Below, one piece after another: positions 13,975 through 64,000 of a stretch of DNA of 64,000 bases. This stretch comes from Candidatus Latescibacterota bacterium (GTDB lineage Bacteria; Latescibacterota; UBA2968; UBA8231). The position numbers and the translations under genes are program-made. The DNA is taken from NCBI GenBank assembly GCA_964291625.2, contig OZ220089.1, positions 4,576,001-4,640,000 of the forward strand, written 5' to 3'. The notes below the pieces were generated by a model, which ran no database searches, was not told the DNA's origin, and saw only the letters and a list, made by a program, of their open reading frames with translations. Each line of letters starts with the position of its first letter. Positions within the stretch are counted from its first letter, which is position 1.

Positions 13975-15108
13975 GTGATCTACCTCGACCACAACGCCAC
14001 GACGCCGGTGCGGCCCGAGGTCCGGGAGGCGATGTGGCCGTACCTCGGCGAGGAGTTCGGCAATCCTTCCAGCCGCCACGGCCCGGGACGGAGGGCCCGC
14101 GACGCCGTCGAGAGGGCCCGCGGACAGATCGCCCGGCTCATCGCCTGCGATCCGGCGGAGATCCACTTCACCAGCGGCGGGACCGAGGCCGACAACTGGG
14201 CCCTGCGAGGCATGTCGGCCTCCTCGCAGGGCTCCGTCGTCGTCTCCTCGGTGGAGCACCACGCCGTCCTCCACGCCGCCGGCGAGCTGGCGCGGGCCGG
14301 CCGCGAGGTCGTGGTCCTCCCCGTGGACGGGGCGGGCCGGGTCGATCCGGAGCGGGTCCTGAAGGCGTCCGAAGGCGCCGCGGTGGTCTCCCTCATCCTG
14401 GCCAACAACGAGACCGGGACGATCCAGCCGGTGGCCGGGATCGGAGCCGTCCTGCGCCAACGCGGGGTTCCCTTCCACGTCGACGCCGTGCAGGCCTTCG
14501 GCAAGATCCCCACCCGGGTCGACGACCTGCAGGCGGACCTGGTCTCCCTCTCGGCCCACAAGATCAACGGTCCCAAGGGCGTGGGCGCCCTGTACGTGCG
14601 CCGCGGCACCTCCCTGGAGCCCTGGCAGGTCGGGGGCGGGCACGAGCACGGGCTGCGAGCCGGCACCGAGAACGTGGCGGCCATCGTCGGCTTCGGCGCC
14701 GCCGCCGCGATCCGGCGGGTGGAGATGGCGGACCAGGAGCGGCGGCACGGGCGCCTCAGGGACCGCCTGGAGTCGGCCCTGCGGGAGCGCATCGGCGACG
14801 TGGTCGTCCACGGCCACCGGGTGCACCGGTTGAGCAACACCCTCAACCTCTCCTTCCGCGGCGTCGAGGCCGAGGCGGTCCTCGTCGGCCTCGACCTGGA
14901 GGGGATCTGCGCCTCGAGCGGCTCGGCGTGCACCGAGGGCGCGGCCGATCCCTCCCATGTCCTGCTGGCCATGGGCGTCGAGCCGCGGCTGGCGGCCGGG
15001 GCCCTGCGCTTCAGTCTGGGGTGGGGCAGCGACGAGGCCGGGATCGACCGAGTCGTCGAGGTCCTGCCGGCGATCGTGGCGCGGTTGCGGGACCTCTCGG
15101 TGTTCTGA
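13975..15108 (+). CDS. Cysteine desulfurase (NifS/IscS group I)
   Basis: Motifs IYLDHNATTP, FTSGGTEADN, SAHKINGPKG (PLP lysine), RAGTEN and SSGSAC. Confidence 0.93.
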   Translation: MIYLDHNATTPVRPEVREAMWPYLGEEFGNPSSRHGPGRRARDAVERARGQIARLIACDPAEIHFTSGGTEADNWALRGMSASSQGSVVVSSVEHHAVLHAAGELARAGREVVVLPVDGAGRVDPERVLKASEGAAVVSLILANNETGTIQPVAGIGAVLRQRGVPFHVDAVQAFGKIPTRVDDLQADLVSLSAHKINGPKGVGALYVRRGTSLEPWQVGGGHEHGLRAGTENVAAIVGFGAAAAIRRVEMADQERRHGRLRDRLESALRERIGDVVVHGHRVHRLSNTLNLSFRGVEAEAVLVGLDLEGICASSGSACTEGAADPSHVLLAMGVEPRLAAGALRFSLGWGSDEAGIDRVVEVLPAIVARLRDLSVF

Positions 15109-37913: not shown

Positions 37914-38717
37914 ATGGCTTTCCCGCGGACCCTGCCAGAGGACTCCACGACGCTGCCGGGAGTGGCCAACGCGGTGGCCTTCTCCTCCGCCAAGGGGGGT
38001 GTCGGCAAGTCCACCGTGGCCCTCAACGCGGCCCTGGCCCTGTGCGGCCGCGGCGCCCGGGTCGGTCTGCTGGACGCCGACATCTACGGTCCCAGCCTGC
38101 CCGTGCTCACGGGGGTGCGCCAGGAGCCGGAGGTCGGCGACGGCGACCGCATCCGCCCTCTCCAGGCCCACGGCCTGGCCATGATGTCCATGGGCTTCCT
38201 GACCCGTCGGGAGACGCCGGTCATCTGGCGCGGCCCCCTTCTCGGCCAGGCGGTTCAGCAGTTCCTGCAGCAGGTCGAGTGGGGGGAGCTCGACTTCCTC
38301 CTCGTCGACATGCCCCCCGGGACCGGCGACATCGCCCTCACCCTGAGCCAGGTGGTCGCCCTCAGCGGCGCCGTCGTGGTCACCACGCCCCAGGGCGTGG
38401 CCCTCCAGGACGTGGAGCGCGGGATGGCGATGTTCGACAAAGTCGAGGTCGACATCCTCGGGCTGGTGGAGAACATGAGCTGGTACCTCTGCCCCCACTG
38501 CGACGCCCGGCACGAGATCTTCGGCCACGGAGGGGGACGGGAGGCCGCGGAGCGCCTCGAGGTGCCCTTCCTCGGAGAGATCCCTCTCGACGGCGAGATC
38601 CGCGAGGCGGGCGACCGTGGTCAGCCGCTGATGCTGGCCCAGCCGGACTCAGCGCGGGCCCGGGCCTTCGACACCGTCGCCGCCGGCCTGATCCGGATCC
38701 TGGAGAGCCTGTCCTGA
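37914..38717 (+). CDS. mrp: Mrp/NBP35 (ApbC) Fe-S carrier ATPase
   Basis: Motifs KGGVGKST, DADIYGPS, WRGP, DMPPGTGD and ENMS...CPHC. Confidence 0.92.
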   Translation: MAFPRTLPEDSTTLPGVANAVAFSSAKGGVGKSTVALNAALALCGRGARVGLLDADIYGPSLPVLTGVRQEPEVGDGDRIRPLQAHGLAMMSMGFLTRRETPVIWRGPLLGQAVQQFLQQVEWGELDFLLVDMPPGTGDIALTLSQVVALSGAVVVTTPQGVALQDVERGMAMFDKVEVDILGLVENMSWYLCPHCDARHEIFGHGGGREAAERLEVPFLGEIPLDGEIREAGDRGQPLMLAQPDSARARAFDTVAAGLIRILESLS

Positions 38718-57075: not shown

Positions 57076-59163
57076 GTGACCGCCGACTCCCCATCTTCTG
57101 TCCGCCCCAACCGTCTTTCCCGCGAGACCAGTCCCTACCTGCAGCAGCATGCCCACAACCCCGTGGACTGGTTCCCATGGGGGGATGAGGCCCTGGATCT
57201 GGCCCGGCGGCAGGATCGGCCGATCCTGTTGTCGGTGGGATACTCCGCCTGCCACTGGTGCCACGTGATGGAACGCGAGTCCTTCGAGAACGCGGCCATC
57301 GCGGCCCTGATGAACCGGCACTTCGTCAACATCAAGGTCGACCGCGAGGAGCGTCCCGAGGTCGACGAGATCTACATGGCGGCGGTGCAGGCCATGACCG
57401 GCAGCGGCGGCTGGCCCATGACCGTCTTCCTCACCCCCGACCTGCGGCCGTTCTTCGGCGGCACCTACTTCCCCCCCGACGACCGCTACGGGCGCCCCGG
57501 ATTCGGCCGGGTTCTGGAGGCCGTGGCGGCGCATTACAGCGATCACCGGGACCGCGTCGAGGAGAGGGCCGCCGAGCTGCGCCGGTTCCTGGTGCAGAAC
57601 GCGGCTCCACTGGCACGGTCCGGGGCGATCGCCGATGGCCTCGTGGAGGCCGCCGCCCGCCAGCTGGTGCGAGATCACGACGAGACCCATGGAGGGTTCA
57701 GCAACCAGGGCCCCAAGTTCCCCAACAGCGGCGGGCTCTCCCTGCTCCTGCGCCACTGGAGCGACGGTGGCGGGGGGGCGGCCCTGGAGACCGCCGCCCA
57801 CACCCTGACGCGGATGGCTCGCGGCGGCATCTACGACCACCTCGGCGGCGGTTTCCACCGCTATTCCGTCGACGAGCGCTGGCTCGTACCGCACTTCGAG
57901 AAGATGCTCTACGACAATGCGCTGCTGGTGCCGGTCTACCTCGATGCCTGGCAGGCCACGGGAACCGATCTCTACGAGTGCGTCGCCCGCGAGACCCTGG
58001 ACTACGTGATCCGGGAGATGACCACGCCGGAGGGGGGGTACTGCGCGACCCAGGACGCCGACTCGGAGGGCGAGGAGGGCCGGTTCTTCGTGTGGACGCC
58101 GGAGCAGGTGGAGGAGGTGATCGAGGACGAGGAGACGGCGCGCCTGTTCTGCCGTACGTACGACGTGACGCCGGAAGGCAACTTCGAGGGCCGCAGCATC
58201 CTCCATCTCTCCTCCGAGCCCGGGGAGCTGGCCCGCTTCCTCGGTGTCGATCCACAGCGGCTGGCGTCGTCCACTTCGGCGGCCAGGGCTGCCTTGTTCG
58301 AGGCGCGCCGGCGGCGGGTGGCCCCGGACCGGGACGACAAGGTGATCGCCTCGTGGAACGGCCTGATGATCGGAGCCATGGCCCGCGGCGCCCAGGTCCT
58401 GGGGGAGCCGGCCTATCTGGCCTCGGCGCGCCGGGCGGCTCGCTTCGTCCTCGACGGCATGGTCCCGGAGGGCCGGCTGCTGCACGTCTACAAGGATGGC
58501 GAGGCCCGCATCGCCGCCTGCCAGGACGACTATGCCGCCCTGGTGGCCGGCCTCGTGGACCTCTACGAGGCGACCTTCGAGGCGGGCTGGCTCCTCGAGG
58601 CCACCACCCTCGCGAGGGCGATGATCGAACGCTTCTGGGATCCCGACGAGGGCGGGTTCTTCTTCGTCGACGCCGGCCGCGGAGACCTCCTCGTACGCAC
58701 GAAGAACCCCTTCGATGGAGCGACCCCGGCCGGCAATTCGCTGGCGGTCCTGGCCCTTCTGCGCCTGGGCACCCTCACCGGCGAGGCCGACTTTCTCCGC
58801 TGTGCCGAGGAGACCCTGCACCTCTATGGCCGGCTCCTCGAGCGGTCTCCCGGGGCCTGTCCCTTCATGGCCTGCGCCCTGCACCAGTACCGCCGGGGCG
58901 CCGTGGAGGTCACGGTGGTAGGCGCGGAAGAGTCCCGCCGGCCCTTCGTCGAGGCCGCCAACCGGCCGTACCTGCCGACACGCGTGCTATCGGGAGGAGC
59001 CGGGGTCGCAGCCCCGGCGGAGGCCGTGGTCCCGGCCCTGGCCGAGCGCCGCCCCGGCGCCGCGGGGGAGGCCCGTGCCTACGTCTGCCGCGATTCGGTC
59101 TGCTCTGCTCCCGTGGAGGACGTGACCGAACTCACTCGCCTCCTCGCCGGGGAAGATGGCTGA
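57076..59163 (+). CDS. Thioredoxin-domain/six-hairpin protein (YyaL/SSP411, DUF255)
   Basis: [59 protein letters not shown] and [11 protein letters not shown]. Confidence 0.93.
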
Positions 59164-60109
59164 GGGCAGGGTCGCCACCTCGATCCTCGACACGGTCGGG
59201 GACACGCCCATGGTGCCCCTGCGCCGCATGGTACCGCGCGGGAGCGCCAGGATCCTGTGCAAGCTGGAGGCCCTCAACCCGGCTGGCAGCGTGAAGGACC
59301 GCATCGGTCTGAGCATGATCCGCGCCGCCGAGGGCGACGGACGCCTCAGGCCGGGCATGAGGATCGTGGAGCCCACCAGCGGCAACACGGGGATCGCCCT
59401 CGCCATGGTTGCAGCCGCCCTCGGGTACGACCTCGTGCTGACCATGCCCGACCACATGAGCGAGGAGCGCATCTCGGTGATGGCGGCGTACGGGGCCCGA
59501 ATCGAGCTGACGCCCGCCGAGCAGGACATGGCGGGAGCCATCGACCGGGCCGAGGAGATCGTCGCCGCCGATCCCGCGGGCTCCTTCATGCCGCAGCAGT
59601 TCGGCAATCCCGCCAACCCGGAGGTGCACAGACGAACGACGGCTCGGGAGATTCTGCAGGCTCTGGGCGGCCGGATCGACGCCTTCGTCGCCGGTGTCGG
59701 GACGGGGGGCACCATCAGTGGTGTCGGCGGCGTCCTCCGCGAGGAGCTGGGACCGGCGCTGCGGATCGTGGCTGTCGAGCCCGCTCGCTCCCCCGTGCTG
59801 TCCGGGGGCGAGGCGGGGGTCCACGGCATCCAGGGGATCGGCGCCGGGTTCGTGCCGGAGGTGCTCGATCGCTCGGTGATCGACGAGGTGATCGCCGTCG
59901 AGGACGAGGAGGCCTTTCTCCACACCCGGCGCCTGGCGCGCGAGGAAGGTCTGCTCGTGGGCCCCTCCTCCGGAGCCAATGTCGCCACGGCGCTGAGGGT
60001 GGGGCTCGAGCTGGGAGAGGGGGCCGCCGTGGTCACCGTGCTGTGCGACACGGGATTCCGCTATTTCAGCGTCGACGGCTTCGCCGGCGAGTCCGGCGGC
60101 ACGGGGTGA
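59156..60109 (+). CDS. cysK: Cysteine synthase (O-acetylserine sulfhydrylase)
   Basis: [45 protein letters not shown] and GPSSGAN. Confidence 0.92.
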
Positions 60110-60118
60110 GGGCTCGCG

Positions 60119-60159
60119 TTGACACTCCCGCGGGGGCTGGTTACATTCGCGAGAGTCAA
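60119..60159 (+). promoter_or_regulatory. Promoter TTGACA-N17-TACATT with an overlapping 12-bp imperfect inverted repeat
   Basis: -35 at 60119 and -10 at 60142; arm TTGACACTCCCG (60119-60130) matches the reverse complement of 60148-60159 (TTGACTCTCGCG) at 10 of 12 positions. Confidence 0.65.
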
Positions 60160-60173
60160 ATAGAAACAACCTC

Positions 60174-60656
60174 TTGGCAGTCCCTGAACCCACAATGCAG
60201 ATCGGTGACTTGGCCGCGCGCGCAGGTGTCTCAACGCGGACCCTCCGCTACTACGAGGAGCTCGGGATCATCGAGCCCGTGGCGCGGACCAACGGCGGCT
60301 TCAGGAGGTACGGCGCCGACCAGTTGCGCCGGTTGCAGATCATCCAGGGCCTCAAGGCTCTGGGTTTCGAGCTCGAGCAGGTGCGCCGGTTGTTCTCCGT
60401 GCGTGAGACGGCCGAGACCGGCGGCGACCTGGCATGTCAGATGATCGGTTTGCTCCAGGGTCAGCAGGAGGAGATCGACCGACGGATCGCCCAGTACCAG
60501 GAGATGAGGGAGCGGAACCTGCGCGGTATCGAAGTGCTGCGCGGATGTCTCCTCTGCGAGATACCGGTCTTCGAGCGTGACTGCCAGAACTGCGAGACCT
60601 ACCGATGTCACGAGGATGTCCCCGACCTCGTGGAGTACGCCATCTTCCGACGCTGA
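60174..60656 (+). CDS. MerR family transcriptional regulator with C-terminal Cys cluster
   Basis: IGDLAARAGVSTRTLRYYEELG, RT.GGFRRY and LGFELEQV; C-terminal CLLC-X8-CQNC-X4-C. The start is TTG 60174 or ATG 60195. Confidence 0.9.
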   Translation: MAVPEPTMQIGDLAARAGVSTRTLRYYEELGIIEPVARTNGGFRRYGADQLRRLQIIQGLKALGFELEQVRRLFSVRETAETGGDLACQMIGLLQGQQEEIDRRIAQYQEMRERNLRGIEVLRGCLLCEIPVFERDCQNCETYRCHEDVPDLVEYAIFRR

Positions 60657-60688
60657 GTACAACGTCGCCTGCCTCTCTGCCCAAGCCG

Positions 60689-61012
60689 ATGATCACCGTT
60701 TCCGACGAAGCCGCTGAGAAGATCCGGAACCTTCTGGACAGGGAGGGATCCCCGGGGCGCGGCCTGCGCGTGGCGGTCCGGGGAGGCGGGTGCTCCGGCT
60801 TTCAGTACCAGCTCGATTTCGAAGAGGCGGCCGGCGACATGGACCAGGTCGTCGAGTCAAACGGTGTCCGCATCTTCGTCGATCCCAAGAGCAGCCTCTA
60901 CCTCAACGGTGTCATCCTGCGTTACGACGACGGTCTGATGGGGGCAGGTTTCCAGGTGGAGAACCCCAACGCCCGGACCACCTGCGGCTGTGGCGAGTCC
61001 TTCTCCGTCTGA
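60689..61012 (+). CDS. iscA: A-type Fe-S carrier (IscA/ErpA/HesB family)
   Basis: LRVAVRGGGCSGFQY and NPNARTTCGCGESF. Confidence 0.92.
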   Translation: MITVSDEAAEKIRNLLDREGSPGRGLRVAVRGGGCSGFQYQLDFEEAAGDMDQVVESNGVRIFVDPKSSLYLNGVILRYDDGLMGAGFQVENPNARTTCGCGESFSV

Positions 61013-62195
61013 CCTGCCCCCGGGCGGGCCTTCCCGGCACATACCCTACCTCGACAATCTGGCCACCACGCCCGTGGACCCGCGCGTCCTGAAGGCGATG
61101 TGGCCGTACTTCACCACTCACTTCGGCAATCCTTCCAGCAGGACCCACGCCTACGGCTGGGGGGCGACGGAGGCCGTCGACCGGGCCCGCGCCCAGGTGG
61201 CCGCCCTGATCGGCGCCGCTCCCCGCGAGATCCTCTTCACCAGCGGCGCCACCGAGGCCAACAACCTGGCCATCAAGGGTGTGGCCGAGGCCAACCGGGA
61301 CCGCGGCGACCACCTCGTGACCTGCGTCACGGAACATCGAGCCGTGCTCGATGTCTTCGCCGCCCTGGAGCGCCGCGGCTTCCGGGTGACCCGTCTGCCC
61401 GTCGACAGCGCCGGAAGCGTCGATCTCGAGCGGTTGGAGGAGGCCCTCGCCGAGGAGCCGGTGCTGCTCTCCCTGATGGCCGCCAACAACGAGATCGGCA
61501 CCCTGCAGCCGCTGGAGGAGATCGGGCGCCTGGTGGCGGCCAGCGGTGTCATCTGGCACTGCGACGCCGCCCAGGCCGTCGGCAAGGTGCCGGTGGACGT
61601 CGCCGGTCTTCCCGTCGACCTGCTGTCGATGTCGGCCCACAAGCTCTACGGACCGAAGGGGCAGGGCGCGCTCTTCGTCCGCCGCCGGAAGCCGCCTCTG
61701 CGCCTGACCCCGCTCATCGAAGGAGGAGGGCAGGAGCGCGGATTGCGTTCCGGTACCCTGAACGTCCCCGGGATCGTCGGCCTCGGCGAGGCCTGCCGCC
61801 TGGGCGGCGAGGAGATGTCCACCGATGCCGCGCGCATCGGGGCCCTGCGCGACGATCTGGAGTCGCGGCTCCTCGATGGCCTTGCGGGACAGGTCCGCCG
61901 CAACGGTGACCCGCGCAGACGCCTGCCGGGCGCGCTGAGCGTCTCCTTCGCCGGCATCCACGGGAGCGATCTGCTGCTGGCTCTGCGGGACCTGGCCGTC
62001 TCCGCGGGCTCGGCGTGCTCTTCCGGTAGCGGCGAGCCGTCCCACGTGCTCAAGGCGATCGGGTGTGACGACGCCACGTCGGCCGCGACGCTGCGCTTCG
62101 GCATCGGACGCTTCAACACGGCCGGCGACATCGACCTTGCGGCGCGCCGCACCGTCCACGAGGCCCGGCGTCTCGCCACGCCTTCTCTCGCCTGA
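60990..62195 (+). CDS. iscS: Cysteine desulfurase IscS
   Basis: YLDNLATTPVDPRV, FGNPSSRTHAYGW, FTSGATEANN, SAHKLYGPKG, RSGTLNVPGIVG and SAGSACSS. The start is uncertain. Confidence 0.92.
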   Translation: MASPSPSDLPPGGPSRHIPYLDNLATTPVDPRVLKAMWPYFTTHFGNPSSRTHAYGWGATEAVDRARAQVAALIGAAPREILFTSGATEANNLAIKGVAEANRDRGDHLVTCVTEHRAVLDVFAALERRGFRVTRLPVDSAGSVDLERLEEALAEEPVLLSLMAANNEIGTLQPLEEIGRLVAASGVIWHCDAAQAVGKVPVDVAGLPVDLLSMSAHKLYGPKGQGALFVRRRKPPLRLTPLIEGGGQERGLRSGTLNVPGIVGLGEACRLGGEEMSTDAARIGALRDDLESRLLDGLAGQVRRNGDPRRRLPGALSVSFAGIHGSDLLLALRDLAVSAGSACSSGSGEPSHVLKAIGCDDATSAATLRFGIGRFNTAGDIDLAARRTVHEARRLATPSLA

Positions 62196-62271
62196 GACGG
62201 TCTTGCGGGAAGCGGGGTGGTCCCTAGCTTCTTGGCCGACGAGTACACCAAACAGGATGGAGAAGACCAGA

Positions 62272-63462
62272 ATGGCTCTCACTTCGAGCCAGCTCCTCGA
62301 AGAGGTCAAGAAGTCGATCACCGAGGTCACCGCCGAGGAGGTCAAGCGGTCCCTGAACAGCGGTGAGATCCGGCACGTCGTCGACGTGCGCGAACGCGAC
62401 GAGGTCATGGACGGCTACATCCCCGGCTCGCACCTCATCCCCCGGGGATTCCTCGAGCTCAACGTCGAGGAGGAGGTCACCCTGGACCGGGAGGAGCCGA
62501 TCGTCCTCTACTGCGCCGGCGGCAACCGCTCGGCCCTGGCCGCGCGCGACCTCGTGGCCATGGGCTATGCCCGGGTGAGTTCCATGGTCGGCGGCATCAA
62601 GGGGTGGAAGGACGCGGGATACGGCATCGAGCAGGACGGCCTCCTGTCCGACGAGGACCTGCAGCGCTACTCGCGGCACATCATCCTGCCCGAGGTCGGC
62701 GAGCGCGGCCAGCAGGAGCTGCTCAAGGCGAAGGTGCTCCTCATCGGGGCCGGAGGCCTCGGCTGCCCGACGGCCCTCTACCTGGCCGCGGCCGGGGTCG
62801 GCACCGTCGGCCTGGTCGACGCCGATGTCGTCGACCGGAGCAACCTGCAGCGGCAGGTCCTCTTCGGGGAAGACGTTCTCGGCCAGCCGAAAGTCGAGGC
62901 CGCCCGCGACCGGCTGCTGAAGCTGAACCCCGGCATCCGCGTTGAGGCCCACCAGGAGCTCATGACCTCCGCCAATGCCATGGACCTCATCGGCGGCTAC
63001 GACATCATCGTCAACGGCTGTGACAACTTCCCCACGCGGTACCTGGTCAACGACGCGGCCGTCATCTCCGGCAAGCCGGTCGTCGACGGCAGCATCTTCC
63101 GCTTCGAGGGTCAGGCGACGGTCTACCACCCCGCCGCGGGCGGACCCTGCTACCGCTGCCTCTATCCCGAACCGCCGCCTCCCGGCGAGGTGCCCAGTTG
63201 CGCCGAAGGCGGAGTTCTCGGCGTGCTGCCCGGAACCGTCGCCATGATCCAGGCCACGGAGGTCGTCAAGCTCGTCATCGGACAGGGCTCCCCCCTCGTG
63301 GGCCGGTTGATCCTGTACGACGCCCTCGACATGAGGTTCCGCGAGATGAAGCTGCGCCGGAACGCGGCCTGCCCCGTGTGCGGCGACGACCCCACCGTCA
63401 AGGAGCTGATCGACTACGACCAGTTCTGCGGTCTCCCGGGCCACAGCGAGGCGGCTGGCTGA
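62272..63462 (+). CDS. moeB: Rhodanese-MoeB/ThiF fusion (MoeZ-like sulfur-carrier adenylyltransferase)
   Basis: N-terminal rhodanese (DVRE..E, YCAGGNRS), then RYSRHIILPEVG, GAGGLG, SNLQRQ, PCYRC, SCAEGGVLG and CPVCG. Confidence 0.9.
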   Translation: MALTSSQLLEEVKKSITEVTAEEVKRSLNSGEIRHVVDVRERDEVMDGYIPGSHLIPRGFLELNVEEEVTLDREEPIVLYCAGGNRSALAARDLVAMGYARVSSMVGGIKGWKDAGYGIEQDGLLSDEDLQRYSRHIILPEVGERGQQELLKAKVLLIGAGGLGCPTALYLAAAGVGTVGLVDADVVDRSNLQRQVLFGEDVLGQPKVEAARDRLLKLNPGIRVEAHQELMTSANAMDLIGGYDIIVNGCDNFPTRYLVNDAAVISGKPVVDGSIFRFEGQATVYHPAAGGPCYRCLYPEPPPPGEVPSCAEGGVLGVLPGTVAMIQATEVVKLVIGQGSPLVGRLILYDALDMRFREMKLRRNAACPVCGDDPTVKELIDYDQFCGLPGHSEAAG

Positions 63463-63489
63463 GGCATCGGCCGCCTCGGCCGCCTTCCG

Positions 63490-64000
63490 ATGATCATGGC
63501 GCCGCCCGCCGGCGTCGACTCCCTCCTCATCGGTCTCGACGAGGAGACCGGCCAGGATCCGGTTCTCGACCTGGCGGCGCAGTTCGGAAACCCCCGCCCC
63601 GTGGAGCTCGAGCTCGGGATCGGCAAGGGGCGCTTTCTCCTCGACGCCGCCCTGCGCAACCCGGGGGTGAACTACATCGGTGTTGAGCAGGCGTCGAAGT
63701 ACCTTCGCCTCGCCCATGCCAGGGCCCTGCGCCGGGGCTGCGCCAACCTCCGCTTCGTCCACGGTGACGCCAGGGAGTTTGTCGAGTTCTTCCTCGCCGC
63801 CGCCTCGATCAGCGCCATTCACGTCTATTTCCCCGACCCGTGGCCGAAGAAACGGCATCACAAGCGGCGGCTGCTCGACGAGGCCTTTCTCGTGGAGGCG
63901 GAGAGAATCCTCATCCCCGGCGGGCGGCTCTGGATCGCAACCGACCACGATGGCTACTTCGAAGCGATCCTCGAGGCCCTCGACCCGTTCAACAGCCTCC
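63490..64000 (+). CDS. trmB: tRNA (guanine-N7)-methyltransferase, 3' end outside the window
   Basis: Hand translation gives VELELGIGKGRFL, NYIGVE, GDA, YFPDPWPKKRHHKRRL and ATDH..YF. It is not in the ORF track because there is no stop in the window. Confidence 0.93.
   Translation, partial: MIMAPPAGVDSLLIGLDEETGQDPVLDLAAQFGNPRPVELELGIGKGRFLLDAALRNPGVNYIGVEQASKYLRLAHARALRRGCANLRFVHGDAREFVEFFLAAASISAIHVYFPDPWPKKRHHKRRLLDEAFLVEAERILIPGGRLWIATDHDGYFEAILEALDPFNSL

Follow-up and report, generated by a model that had tools for sequence, protein, structure and literature searches.

A candidate family of four-cysteine MerR regulators associated with Fe-S biogenesis genes in Latescibacterota and other bacteria

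Introduction

Near the end of a 64,000-nucleotide (nt) stretch of DNA from a Candidatus Latescibacterota bacterium (assembly GCA_964291625.2, contig OZ220089.1, positions 4,576,001-4,640,000 of the forward strand; hereafter, the window) lies an operon of iron-sulfur (Fe-S) and sulfur-relay genes, headed by a gene for a MerR-family protein with a cysteine-rich C-terminus. Control of Fe-S biogenesis has been little worked out beyond the well-studied phyla, and the regulators described so far are SufR and members of the Rrf2 family (IscR, RisR, and others). According to PMC9973013 and PMC6034842, the dedicated regulators IscR, RisR, and SufR use Fe-S clusters. A preliminary description of this DNA had suggested that the MerR protein might be an undescribed sensor of cluster or sulfur status, and our literature searches agree with the first part of that suggestion, in that they found no paper on a four-cysteine MerR regulator of Fe-S genes (subscription journals and supplements lay outside their scope). 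Searches with the spelling of the motif matched an archaeal polymerase and a rotavirus protein and no MerR regulator. A Gecko 3 paper was set aside, as merR and sufBCDS stood only in unrelated table rows of the text available.

Results

The sole sigma-70-like site found by a promoter scan of 59000-64000 was TTGACA-17-TACATT at 60119-60147 on the plus strand (10/12 matches; mean for shuffles, 0.3), and the same scan found no terminator-like sites in that interval. The genes that follow are all on the plus strand. First comes the merR-family gene (60195-60656), whose 153-amino-acid (aa) product has a winged helix-turn-helix (HTH) domain, a long dimerisation helix, and a C-terminal four-cysteine (Cys4) region, as assigned with Pfam and AlphaFold2; the open reading frame (ORF) runs from 60174 to 60656, and the start was placed at ATG 60195 because homologues begin MQIGDLA. 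It is followed by a gene for an A-type Fe-S carrier of the ErpA/IscA type (60689-61012; PF01521, 79.7 bits; NF010147 ErpA, 122.9 vs. a cut-off of 117), a class V cysteine desulfurase of the IscS/NifS type (Aminotran_5; 60990-62195; PF00266, 274 bits; IscS equivalog, 481.7 vs. a cut-off of 548), and a rhodanese-ThiF/MoeB fusion of the sulfur-carrier adenylyltransferase/sulfurtransferase type (62257-63462; PF00581 and PF00899; NF006444, 535 vs. 449). A Methyltransf_4 gene of the tRNA-methyltransferase type, presumably trmB, begins at 63490 and runs off the window end at 64000 (PF02390, 126.5 bits). The start codon of the desulfurase gene is uncertain; GTG 60990 would overlap the end of erpA, and, if it is the start, the gaps from merR to the Methyltransf_4 gene are 33, -23, 61, and 27 nt. 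Upstream of merR, on the same strand, are cysK (59156-60109; TIGR01139, 411.9 vs. 351), whose stop codon lies 10 nt before the promoter, and a DUF255 thioredoxin-like gene. The promoter scan and the Pfam and NCBIfam assignments thus bear out the layout first described, i.e., a promoter before merR, then iscA, iscS, and rhodanese-MoeB, with cysK upstream.

The preliminary description had also placed the MerR protein at the head of the operon instead of IscR or SufR, which overstated the case. Outside the window (L081:74-1974; G000:C1:4272935-4276336), the same genome has a SUF cluster of sufB, sufD, sufS, a sufU/iscU-like gene, and a DUF59-like gene (sufU and DUF59 being named from sequence reading), ending in an Rrf2 gene. 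The latter, the only Rrf2 gene of the genome (C1:4274435-4274836), follows sufS-sufU-DUF59 and encodes a Cys-rich stretch, FCDHFTGAEESCCHTPVDC. Since the genome has this cluster with its Rrf2 gene and none of iscU, hscBA, and fdx was found in the window operon, we read the operon as an accessory cluster-carrier and sulfur-relay operon and not as an isc operon with an exchanged regulator. The genome also has two further IscS/NifS-type genes, a NifU_N gene, and two apbC genes. Within the window, a second IscS/NifS-type desulfurase gene is at 13978-15105 (+; Aminotran_5, 258.6 bits), with a dihydrofolate reductase gene adjoining on the other strand, and an apbC/mrp-like match (45% identity by tblastn) is at about 37956-38711 (+).

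Domain scores and fold both place the regulator in the MerR family. The winged HTH domain scored above all Pfam cut-offs, with PF13411 (MerR_1) at 65.9 vs. 21.6, PF00376 (MerR) at 56.5 vs. 28.2, and PF09278 (MerR-DNA-bind) at 36.1 vs. 25.4. AlphaFold2, given alignment A2 (99 sequences, chosen for the motif), also returned a MerR fold, with a mean predicted local distance difference test score of 93.3 and with helix 76-116 followed by a Cys loop and two short helices. Besides this long dimerisation helix, the solved MerR proteins matched by Foldseek support the assignment; the best was the MerR-family protein 3gp4, followed by CadR, CueR, PbrR, and SoxR (E about 1e-6 to 1e-5). A profile search against PDB sequences matched MerR, CueR, CadR, and similar proteins within positions 1-120 alone, and returned no chain covering the Cys region. 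For residues 108-153, the best named match of an ESM Atlas feature search was a 'SoxR family' fragment cluster at 0.84, under the 0.9 reliability level, and was kept as a lead only.

The C-terminal part of the protein, ...LRGCLLCEIPVFERDCQNCETYRCHEDVPDLVEYAIFRR, reads C118xxC121-x8-C130xxC133-x4-C138, exactly the CxxC-X8-CxxC-X4-C first reported at 60546-60608. The codons of the C118xxC121-x8-C130xxC133 part occupy 60546-60593 (+; C118, 60546-60548; C133, 60591-60593), right behind the helix of residues 76-116, and that of the 'fifth' cysteine, C138, occupies 60606-60608 (+). Judging from the alignments and the model, the four cysteines sit in the ligand-holding loop of MerR-family sensors, with a new spacing.

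The nearest hidden Markov models and solved structures are those of ZntR, CueR, MerR, and CadR, and one data source labels some homologues 'Zn(II)-responsive regulator of zntA'. One could accordingly take the protein for a heavy-metal (Zn/Cd/Hg/Cu) sensor of this conventional type, serving efflux or detoxification; indeed, these proteins match residues 1-115 best in both sequence and fold, and their ligand site is in the same loop. However, all NCBIfam equivalogs scored far below their cut-offs: ZntR NF007069 (75/143), CueR TIGR02044 (71.9/147.4), TIGR02043 (67.2/168), MerR TIGR02051 (64.9/150.9), CadR TIGR02047 (55.6/151.5), SoxR TIGR01950 (53.9/116.9), NmlR (52.2/175), and HspR NF047375 (43.5/105). 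The matches also end short of the Cys region or at its very beginning. The missed cut-offs of ZntR, CueR, MerR, CadR, and SoxR agree with the earlier view that the protein falls outside the characterised Zn/Cu/Hg MerR clades and SoxR. ZntR, CueR, CadR, and MerR activate promoters with 19-20-bp spacers before efflux genes, whereas the spacer here is 17 bp and the neighbours are cysK, erpA, the iscS-type gene, rhodanese-moeB, and the methyltransferase gene, the downstream four of which recur in orthologous loci. No efflux or mer genes were found at the 23 orthologous loci described below or among the Pfam-scanned products of the other loci. The ligands of the metal sensors are, moreover, fewer and differently spaced, and include a Cys from the partner protomer. 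We therefore consider a heavy-metal sensor very improbable. HspR, like the regulator proposed here, is a MerR-family repressor of stress genes, but its match covered residues 3-74 only, no dnaK operon is present here, and to our knowledge HspR lacks a Cys4 motif.

The comparison with SoxR of E. coli, which the review PMC11672702 names as the cluster-binding MerR type, is closer in one half of the motif than in the other. Both proteins have the same MerR fold, and the four cysteines of the window protein, which would come from one protomer, lie directly behind the dimerisation helix, as in SoxR. In alignment A5, the first CxxC aligns with C119xxC122 of SoxR, and the second pair is without a counterpart. 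The SoxR motif as given in passages of that review is CX2CXCX5C (CIGCGCLSxxC), compared with CX2CX8CX2C in the window protein; the helix of the latter is about 7 residues longer (A5), and the TIGR01950 match extends no further than residue 119, so that most of the Cys region lies outside it. The window family also differs from SoxR in having promoters with 17-bp spacers and the dyad inside, Fe-S biogenesis genes as neighbours, and a cofactor that is putative.

With IscR/RisR (Rrf2) and SufR the likeness is one of genomic logic, i.e., a Cys-rich regulator first in or beside Fe-S biogenesis operons, with operators in promoters; their fold is unrelated, and the window protein had no PF02082 (Rrf2) match. 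MliR, a MerR-superfamily protein, is tied to iron homeostasis, and Fe-S assembly genes are among those down-regulated on its deletion; unlike the window protein, it has no effector-binding domain and no cysteines, as passages in PMC9478572 describe it.

A scan of one genome per species yielded 80 loci, of which L001-L023 are orthologues (57-99% identity) from metagenome-assembled genomes (MAGs) titled Gemmatimonadota or Latescibacterota. All relatives are MAGs, gene calls at the loci are our own ORF picks verified by tblastn or Pfam, and loci of one clade are kin, so that counts are not independent events. C118, C121, C130, and C133 were kept in 24 of 24 orthologues (the window and L001-L023), whereas C138 was present in 7 of 24; conservation of the cluster, supposed at first to extend to four or five cysteines, therefore holds for four and not for the fifth. 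In alignment A1 (34 sequences), C133 was invariant and C118 and C121 were at least 90% conserved. This conservation of the pattern is beyond chance. Synteny with iscA and iscS proved just as firm, with erpA next after merR in 23 of 23 orthologous loci and the iscS-type gene, rhodanese-moeB, and the methyltransferase gene following in all 22 with room for them (L021 stops early); cysK adjoins merR in some orthologous loci only. A word-index search gave 223 proteins at E ≤ 1e-3, about 110 of them 50-97% identical over their full length, and matches at E ≤ 1e-30 occurred in 79 of 168 species genomes of the window's phylum, as delimited by the genome tool; within its own family, 63 of 75 other species had a match.

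The interval 59000-64000, or part of it, was present in 20 public runs from 13 studies, many with the label sponge metagenome. Contigs from RNA libraries, whose runs carry sponge or marine metagenome labels, bridged merR-erpA in two studies and cysK-merR in one; they were dropped as evidence of transcription, since transcription, start site, and level are not readable from contigs. One RNA-library contig has a CG insertion after 60147, like L001-L003.

Relatives outside the orthologous group extend the association with Fe-S genes. An exhaustive search returned 29,024 MerR-like cluster representatives at E ≤ 1e-3; the 1,427 at E ≤ 1e-10 are general MerR matches, before any Cys4 filter. The best 150 included 146 new representatives, of which 86 carried CxxC-x8-10-CxxC (75 of the 86 with x8), and N-terminal domain identity to the window protein went down to 27-42% (A2, 99 motif-selected members). 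The motif was encoded by 37 of the 57 non-orthologous loci, and 21 of these 37 had an Fe-S gene directly downstream on the same strand: 15 nifS/iscS-like (mostly in genomes titled Planctomycetota), two nifU-nifS, three apbC/mrp, and one sufC-sufB-sufD-Rieske-sufS. An Fe-S neighbour occurred in 1 of 20 motif-less loci; this locus, L066, has sufB next to the MerR gene and a variant four-Cys arrangement, CxxC-x9-Cx3C.

The suf-linked relatives were followed into two classes. In that of the L062 genome, the protein occurs in 3 of 24 genomes (37-41% identical mutually), and all three have CxxC-x8-CxxC followed by sufC-sufB-...-sufD-Rieske. In that of the L066 genome, a Vampirovibrionales MAG, a homologue was found in 46 of 201 sampled genomes; sufB and sufC follow in 19 of 20 fetched loci, with sufD and sufS too where the piece is long enough. 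Five suf-linked genomes of the latter class gave no full-length Rrf2 match, only partial weak ones (SufR was not searched for). In the Vampirovibrionales MAG itself, a CDGSH iron-sulfur-domain gene lies immediately upstream of the MerR-sufB pair (L066:1896-2171).

Planctomycetota-type loci have an arrangement of their own, in which the four-Cys MerR gene and an optional nifS-like gene are followed by a gene of about 183 aa (no Pfam family) and one whose product, of about 660 aa, has six CarboxypepD_reg repeats (L055:7713-10403; same positions in L031, L032, L034-L036, L038, L041, L052, L057, L059, L065, L067, L070, L072, L078, and L079). A quick maximum-likelihood tree (86 rows, SoxR as outgroup, L047 omitted as too short) kept apart the erpA-iscS (24 rows), Planctomycetota (27 rows), nifU-nifS, and apbC clades, with Shimodaira-Hasegawa-like approximate likelihood ratio support of 98, 98, 98, and 99, respectively. 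Deep forks were poorly resolved, and the tree may be compatible with a single origin of the Fe-S link.

Promoters of the orthologues fall into classes that point to a shared operator. In class B (10 loci), the promoter reads TTGACA-CTTACGTTCACGTCAAG-TACATT, and a dyad with the core ACGT-NN-ACGT fills the 17-bp spacer. This core also occurs upstream of merR in two class C orthologues, as well as in three apbC loci, two nifU-nifS loci, and L066. Thus 12 of the window's orthologues (class B and class C) have the operator upstream of merR, and since it lies in their own promoters, autoregulation of the merR-erpA-iscS operon was probably the ancestral state. The core is concentrated in these regions, with 18 sites in the upstream 300 nt of the 80 loci vs. 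30 in all 848,671 nt of those loci.

Beyond the orthologues, the core was present in 17 of 20 suf loci of the Vampirovibrionales MAG's class (e.g., cTTGACGTTAACGTTAGGGT...TATCCT), and variants of the operator were seen in the other suf lineage. Promoters of sister families of the window's class have ACGT-N-ACGT in TTGACT-TTAACGTTACGTYAAAG-TATRTT; here too the dyad takes up a 17-bp spacer, and a further copy often lies upstream. Spacers of 17 bp are common to the window, the class B orthologues, and the sister families, and also to the suf-linked relatives by our own reading of printed examples; the dyad-carrying spacer of 19-20 bp expected for classical MerR activation was not observed.

A stricter pattern, TGACGTNNACGTNA, had only five sites in total in five genomes of the Vampirovibrionales MAG's class: three at merR-suf, one before iscA-type and NifU-domain genes, and one within a coding frame. 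In the L190 genome of that class, the second operator site, TGACGTTTACGTTA, lies directly upstream of the iscA-type (PF01521) and NifU-domain (PF01106) genes (L190:798-1520), 14 kb from the merR-suf operon. Extra matches to a 22-bp form of the dyad, TTGAC-N4-ACGT-N4-GTCAA, in five orthologue genomes were dropped as regulon members because the recurrent ones fall inside coding frames (578-aa, short MIGPVFVDTN, and 893-aa frames, and others).

The window belongs to class A (with L001-L007), in which the hexamers are the same as in class B but the spacer is CTCCCGCGGGGGCTGGT and no dyad was found; L008 likewise has none. The class A block, cgTTGACACTCC-N4-GGGGCTGGTTACATTCGC, spans the -35, spacer, and -10 at 60117-60150 (+), and in alignment A3 it is conserved in the window and L003-L007 while the flanks are not. 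By eye, no convincing dyad was seen in the block, CCC-N3-GGG being too weak in a GC-rich genome. Covariation of HTH residue 13 (S vs. T) with promoter class is confounded by kinship and was not used as evidence.

The pattern T.ACGT..ACGT.A occurs once in the whole 5.9-Mb genome, outside the window, as the exact copy of a tandem pair (CCTTAACGTGAACGTA x2), the other copy being one base off. The pair (L165:2319-2352; G000:C1, about 3581818-3581851) lies between the -10 (TATTGT) and the ATG of a gene for a 281-aa, RpoS-like sigma factor with sigma-70 r2, r3, and r4 domains, which follows an RF-1-domain (ArfB-like) gene. This sigma factor is the genome's best match (44.5%) to the one encoded beside the MerR homologue in a sister family, and the dyad lies just past the -10 of the sigma orthologue in 10 of 10 family genomes examined (five class A, five class B). 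Since the genome's only two operator copies lie there, the sigma gene is the predicted direct target. As SoxR acts on soxS, the predicted direct target of the window protein would likewise be a secondary regulator.

Because the operator is absent from the window promoter and operon, direct autoregulation in the window is unsupported by a site, and the MerR gene could be a mere passenger at the erpA-iscS operon, acting on the sigma gene while another factor on the promoter block runs the operon. Recurrence of the block elsewhere would fit such a factor. A 29-bp copy of the window promoter block, 25/29 identical including the spacer, lies outside the window (L113:215-243; G000:C1:273614-273642), some 150 nt before a relA/spoT-like gene of 762 aa (named from sequence reading, not tested by hidden Markov model), and is kept in the closest relative (21/25 shared bases). 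In another class A genome, a one-mismatch block (L103:1501-1525, contig C12) is upstream of a gene for a 152-aa phosphotransferase system enzyme IIA, PtsN-like by the same kind of untested reading. The L103 and relA sites hint at a nutrient-stress promoter type in the class A subclade; the block was not used as a conserved regulon, being absent upstream of relA in four other class A genomes. Against the passenger role, all 23 orthologous loci share the order merR-erpA-iscS, and co-transcription would still tie regulator dosage to the operon. We regard the passenger role as possible, though we would not expect it to prevail.

Discussion

Our preferred interpretation, which we favour by a modest degree of confidence, is that the window protein belongs to an uncharacterised, widespread Cys4 MerR subfamily regulating Fe-S biogenesis and trafficking, and that it acts as a repressor through a Cys4 centre that probably holds an Fe-S cluster. 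The window protein has CxxC-x8-10-CxxC behind the dimerisation helix, its gene is directly followed on that strand by one for Fe-S biogenesis or trafficking (erpA, then the iscS-type gene), and it lacks the third mark of the proposed group, the ACGT-N1-2-ACGT dyad in its own promoter. As judged from sequence comparison, it is likely that Cys4 MerR regulators of Fe-S biogenesis form a family not described before.

From the gene content, Cys conservation, synteny, and conserved operator positions, we infer DNA binding to the operator, repression, a cofactor, and a signal, which could work together as follows. The protein would bind the ACGT-N1-2-ACGT palindrome as a dimer at its own promoter, where it would block the core promoter, or, at the sigma gene, the start of transcription. 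Repression is more likely than MerR-type activation because the spacers are of the optimal 17 bp and not of 19-20 bp. A change at the Cys4 centre would then release the operator, most likely through loss or oxidation of an Fe-S cluster and less likely through a Zn/thiol switch, and expression of Fe-S biogenesis and trafficking genes would thereby be tied to cluster supply or oxidative damage. The analogy with IscR, RisR, SufR, and SoxR favours a cluster as the ligand. In the window organism, the regulator would be the first cistron of merR-erpA-iscS-rhodanese/moeB-(trmB); the operator would have been lost from the operon's own promoter, leaving the RpoS-like sigma gene as the direct target in this genome, and control of the erpA-iscS operon would be indirect or would act through the clade-specific promoter block.

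Several observations weigh against this interpretation. The 17-bp spacer departs from the MerR activation paradigm of a 19-20-bp spacer, as passages in PMC11672702 give it, which makes the direction of control a guess. ACGT-NN-ACGT is absent from the 300 nt upstream of the window merR, and T.ACGT..ACGT.A with up to two mismatches is absent from 59000-64000, the 10 such matches in the window being at chance level. Within the operon, the RNA-library contigs bridge merR-erpA only and cannot reveal the transcript start. Of the non-orthologous four-Cys loci, 16 of 37 have no Fe-S gene nearby, and the Planctomycetota clade, which supplies 15 of the 21 linked loci, is without the dyad and always carries the 183-aa unknown and the CarboxypepD_reg gene, nifS or no nifS. 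In three sister families of the window's class, homologues with 40-45% identity and CxCxxC-x8-CxxC are not Fe-S-linked; they have a purH-like gene or purA on one side and an RpoS-like sigma gene on the other (5/5 annotated loci), and iscS-apbC-(Rieske)-rhodanese/moeB follows ftsY (a name from sequence reading, not tested by hidden Markov model), with no MerR gene there. The expected link of homologues to Fe-S genes thus stood for distant relatives, which head suf, nifUS, and apbC operons, but not for the sister families. Clade members are also kin, so the counts overstate independence. Finally, closely spaced paired CxxC motifs are also typical of zinc ribbons and knuckles, and the present sequence data do not separate an Fe-S from a Zn or Fe centre.

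The last of these points leads to a different reading of the motif, in which Cys4 would bind zinc as a Zn(Cys)4 site, with a structural role or as a thiol-redox switch, in a regulator of general oxidative or proteotoxic stress that does not sense cluster occupancy and for which Fe-S repair genes are only one target class. Two CxxC motifs set 8-10 residues apart are common in zinc knuckles, and both the sister-family homologues and the window-genome operator point to an RpoS-like sigma gene. The dnaJ-type gene next after apbC in the Bacteriovoracaceae loci L046 and L048 would suit a role in proteotoxic stress, as would, for a general stress regulator, the four-Cys loci that lack an Fe-S link. 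On the other hand, the first CxxC sits where SoxR holds cluster ligands, the known regulators of Fe-S biogenesis use clusters, and the strict-operator sites in the five Vampirovibrionales-class genomes, with all but one of the five at merR-suf or iscA/NifU genes, look like a dedicated Fe-S regulon. On balance, we find the zinc-site reading, the chief alternative to a cluster, doubtful.

Returning to the Fe-S reading, a bolder form of it may be stated, which we put forward only tentatively and would not expect to hold in full. Independently of SoxR, the proteins would form a second class of MerR regulators that bind an Fe-S cluster, in which CX2CX8-10CX2C reads cluster supply. They would act as dedicated feedback repressors of sufBCDS, nifU-nifS, apbC, and erpA-iscS in several phyla, including non-photosynthetic relatives of cyanobacteria in which no Rrf2 was found, with an RpoS-like sigma gate in addition in the window's family.

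If the proposed regulation is true, it would amount to a new regulator family for an essential pathway, whose members in several phyla are placed ahead of SUF, NIF-like, ApbC, and ErpA-IscS genes; should the centre be a cluster, the family would join SoxR as only the second Fe-S-binding type among MerR proteins. The putative operator, T.ACGT-N1-2-ACGT.A in a promoter with a 17-bp spacer, permits regulon prediction in uncultured lineages. For the window's organism, which is found in sponge-metagenome-labelled runs, it predicts a link of Fe-S or redox status with an alternative sigma factor. In the window's family, Fe-S status would then be wired into the general stress programme through the RpoS-like sigma factor.

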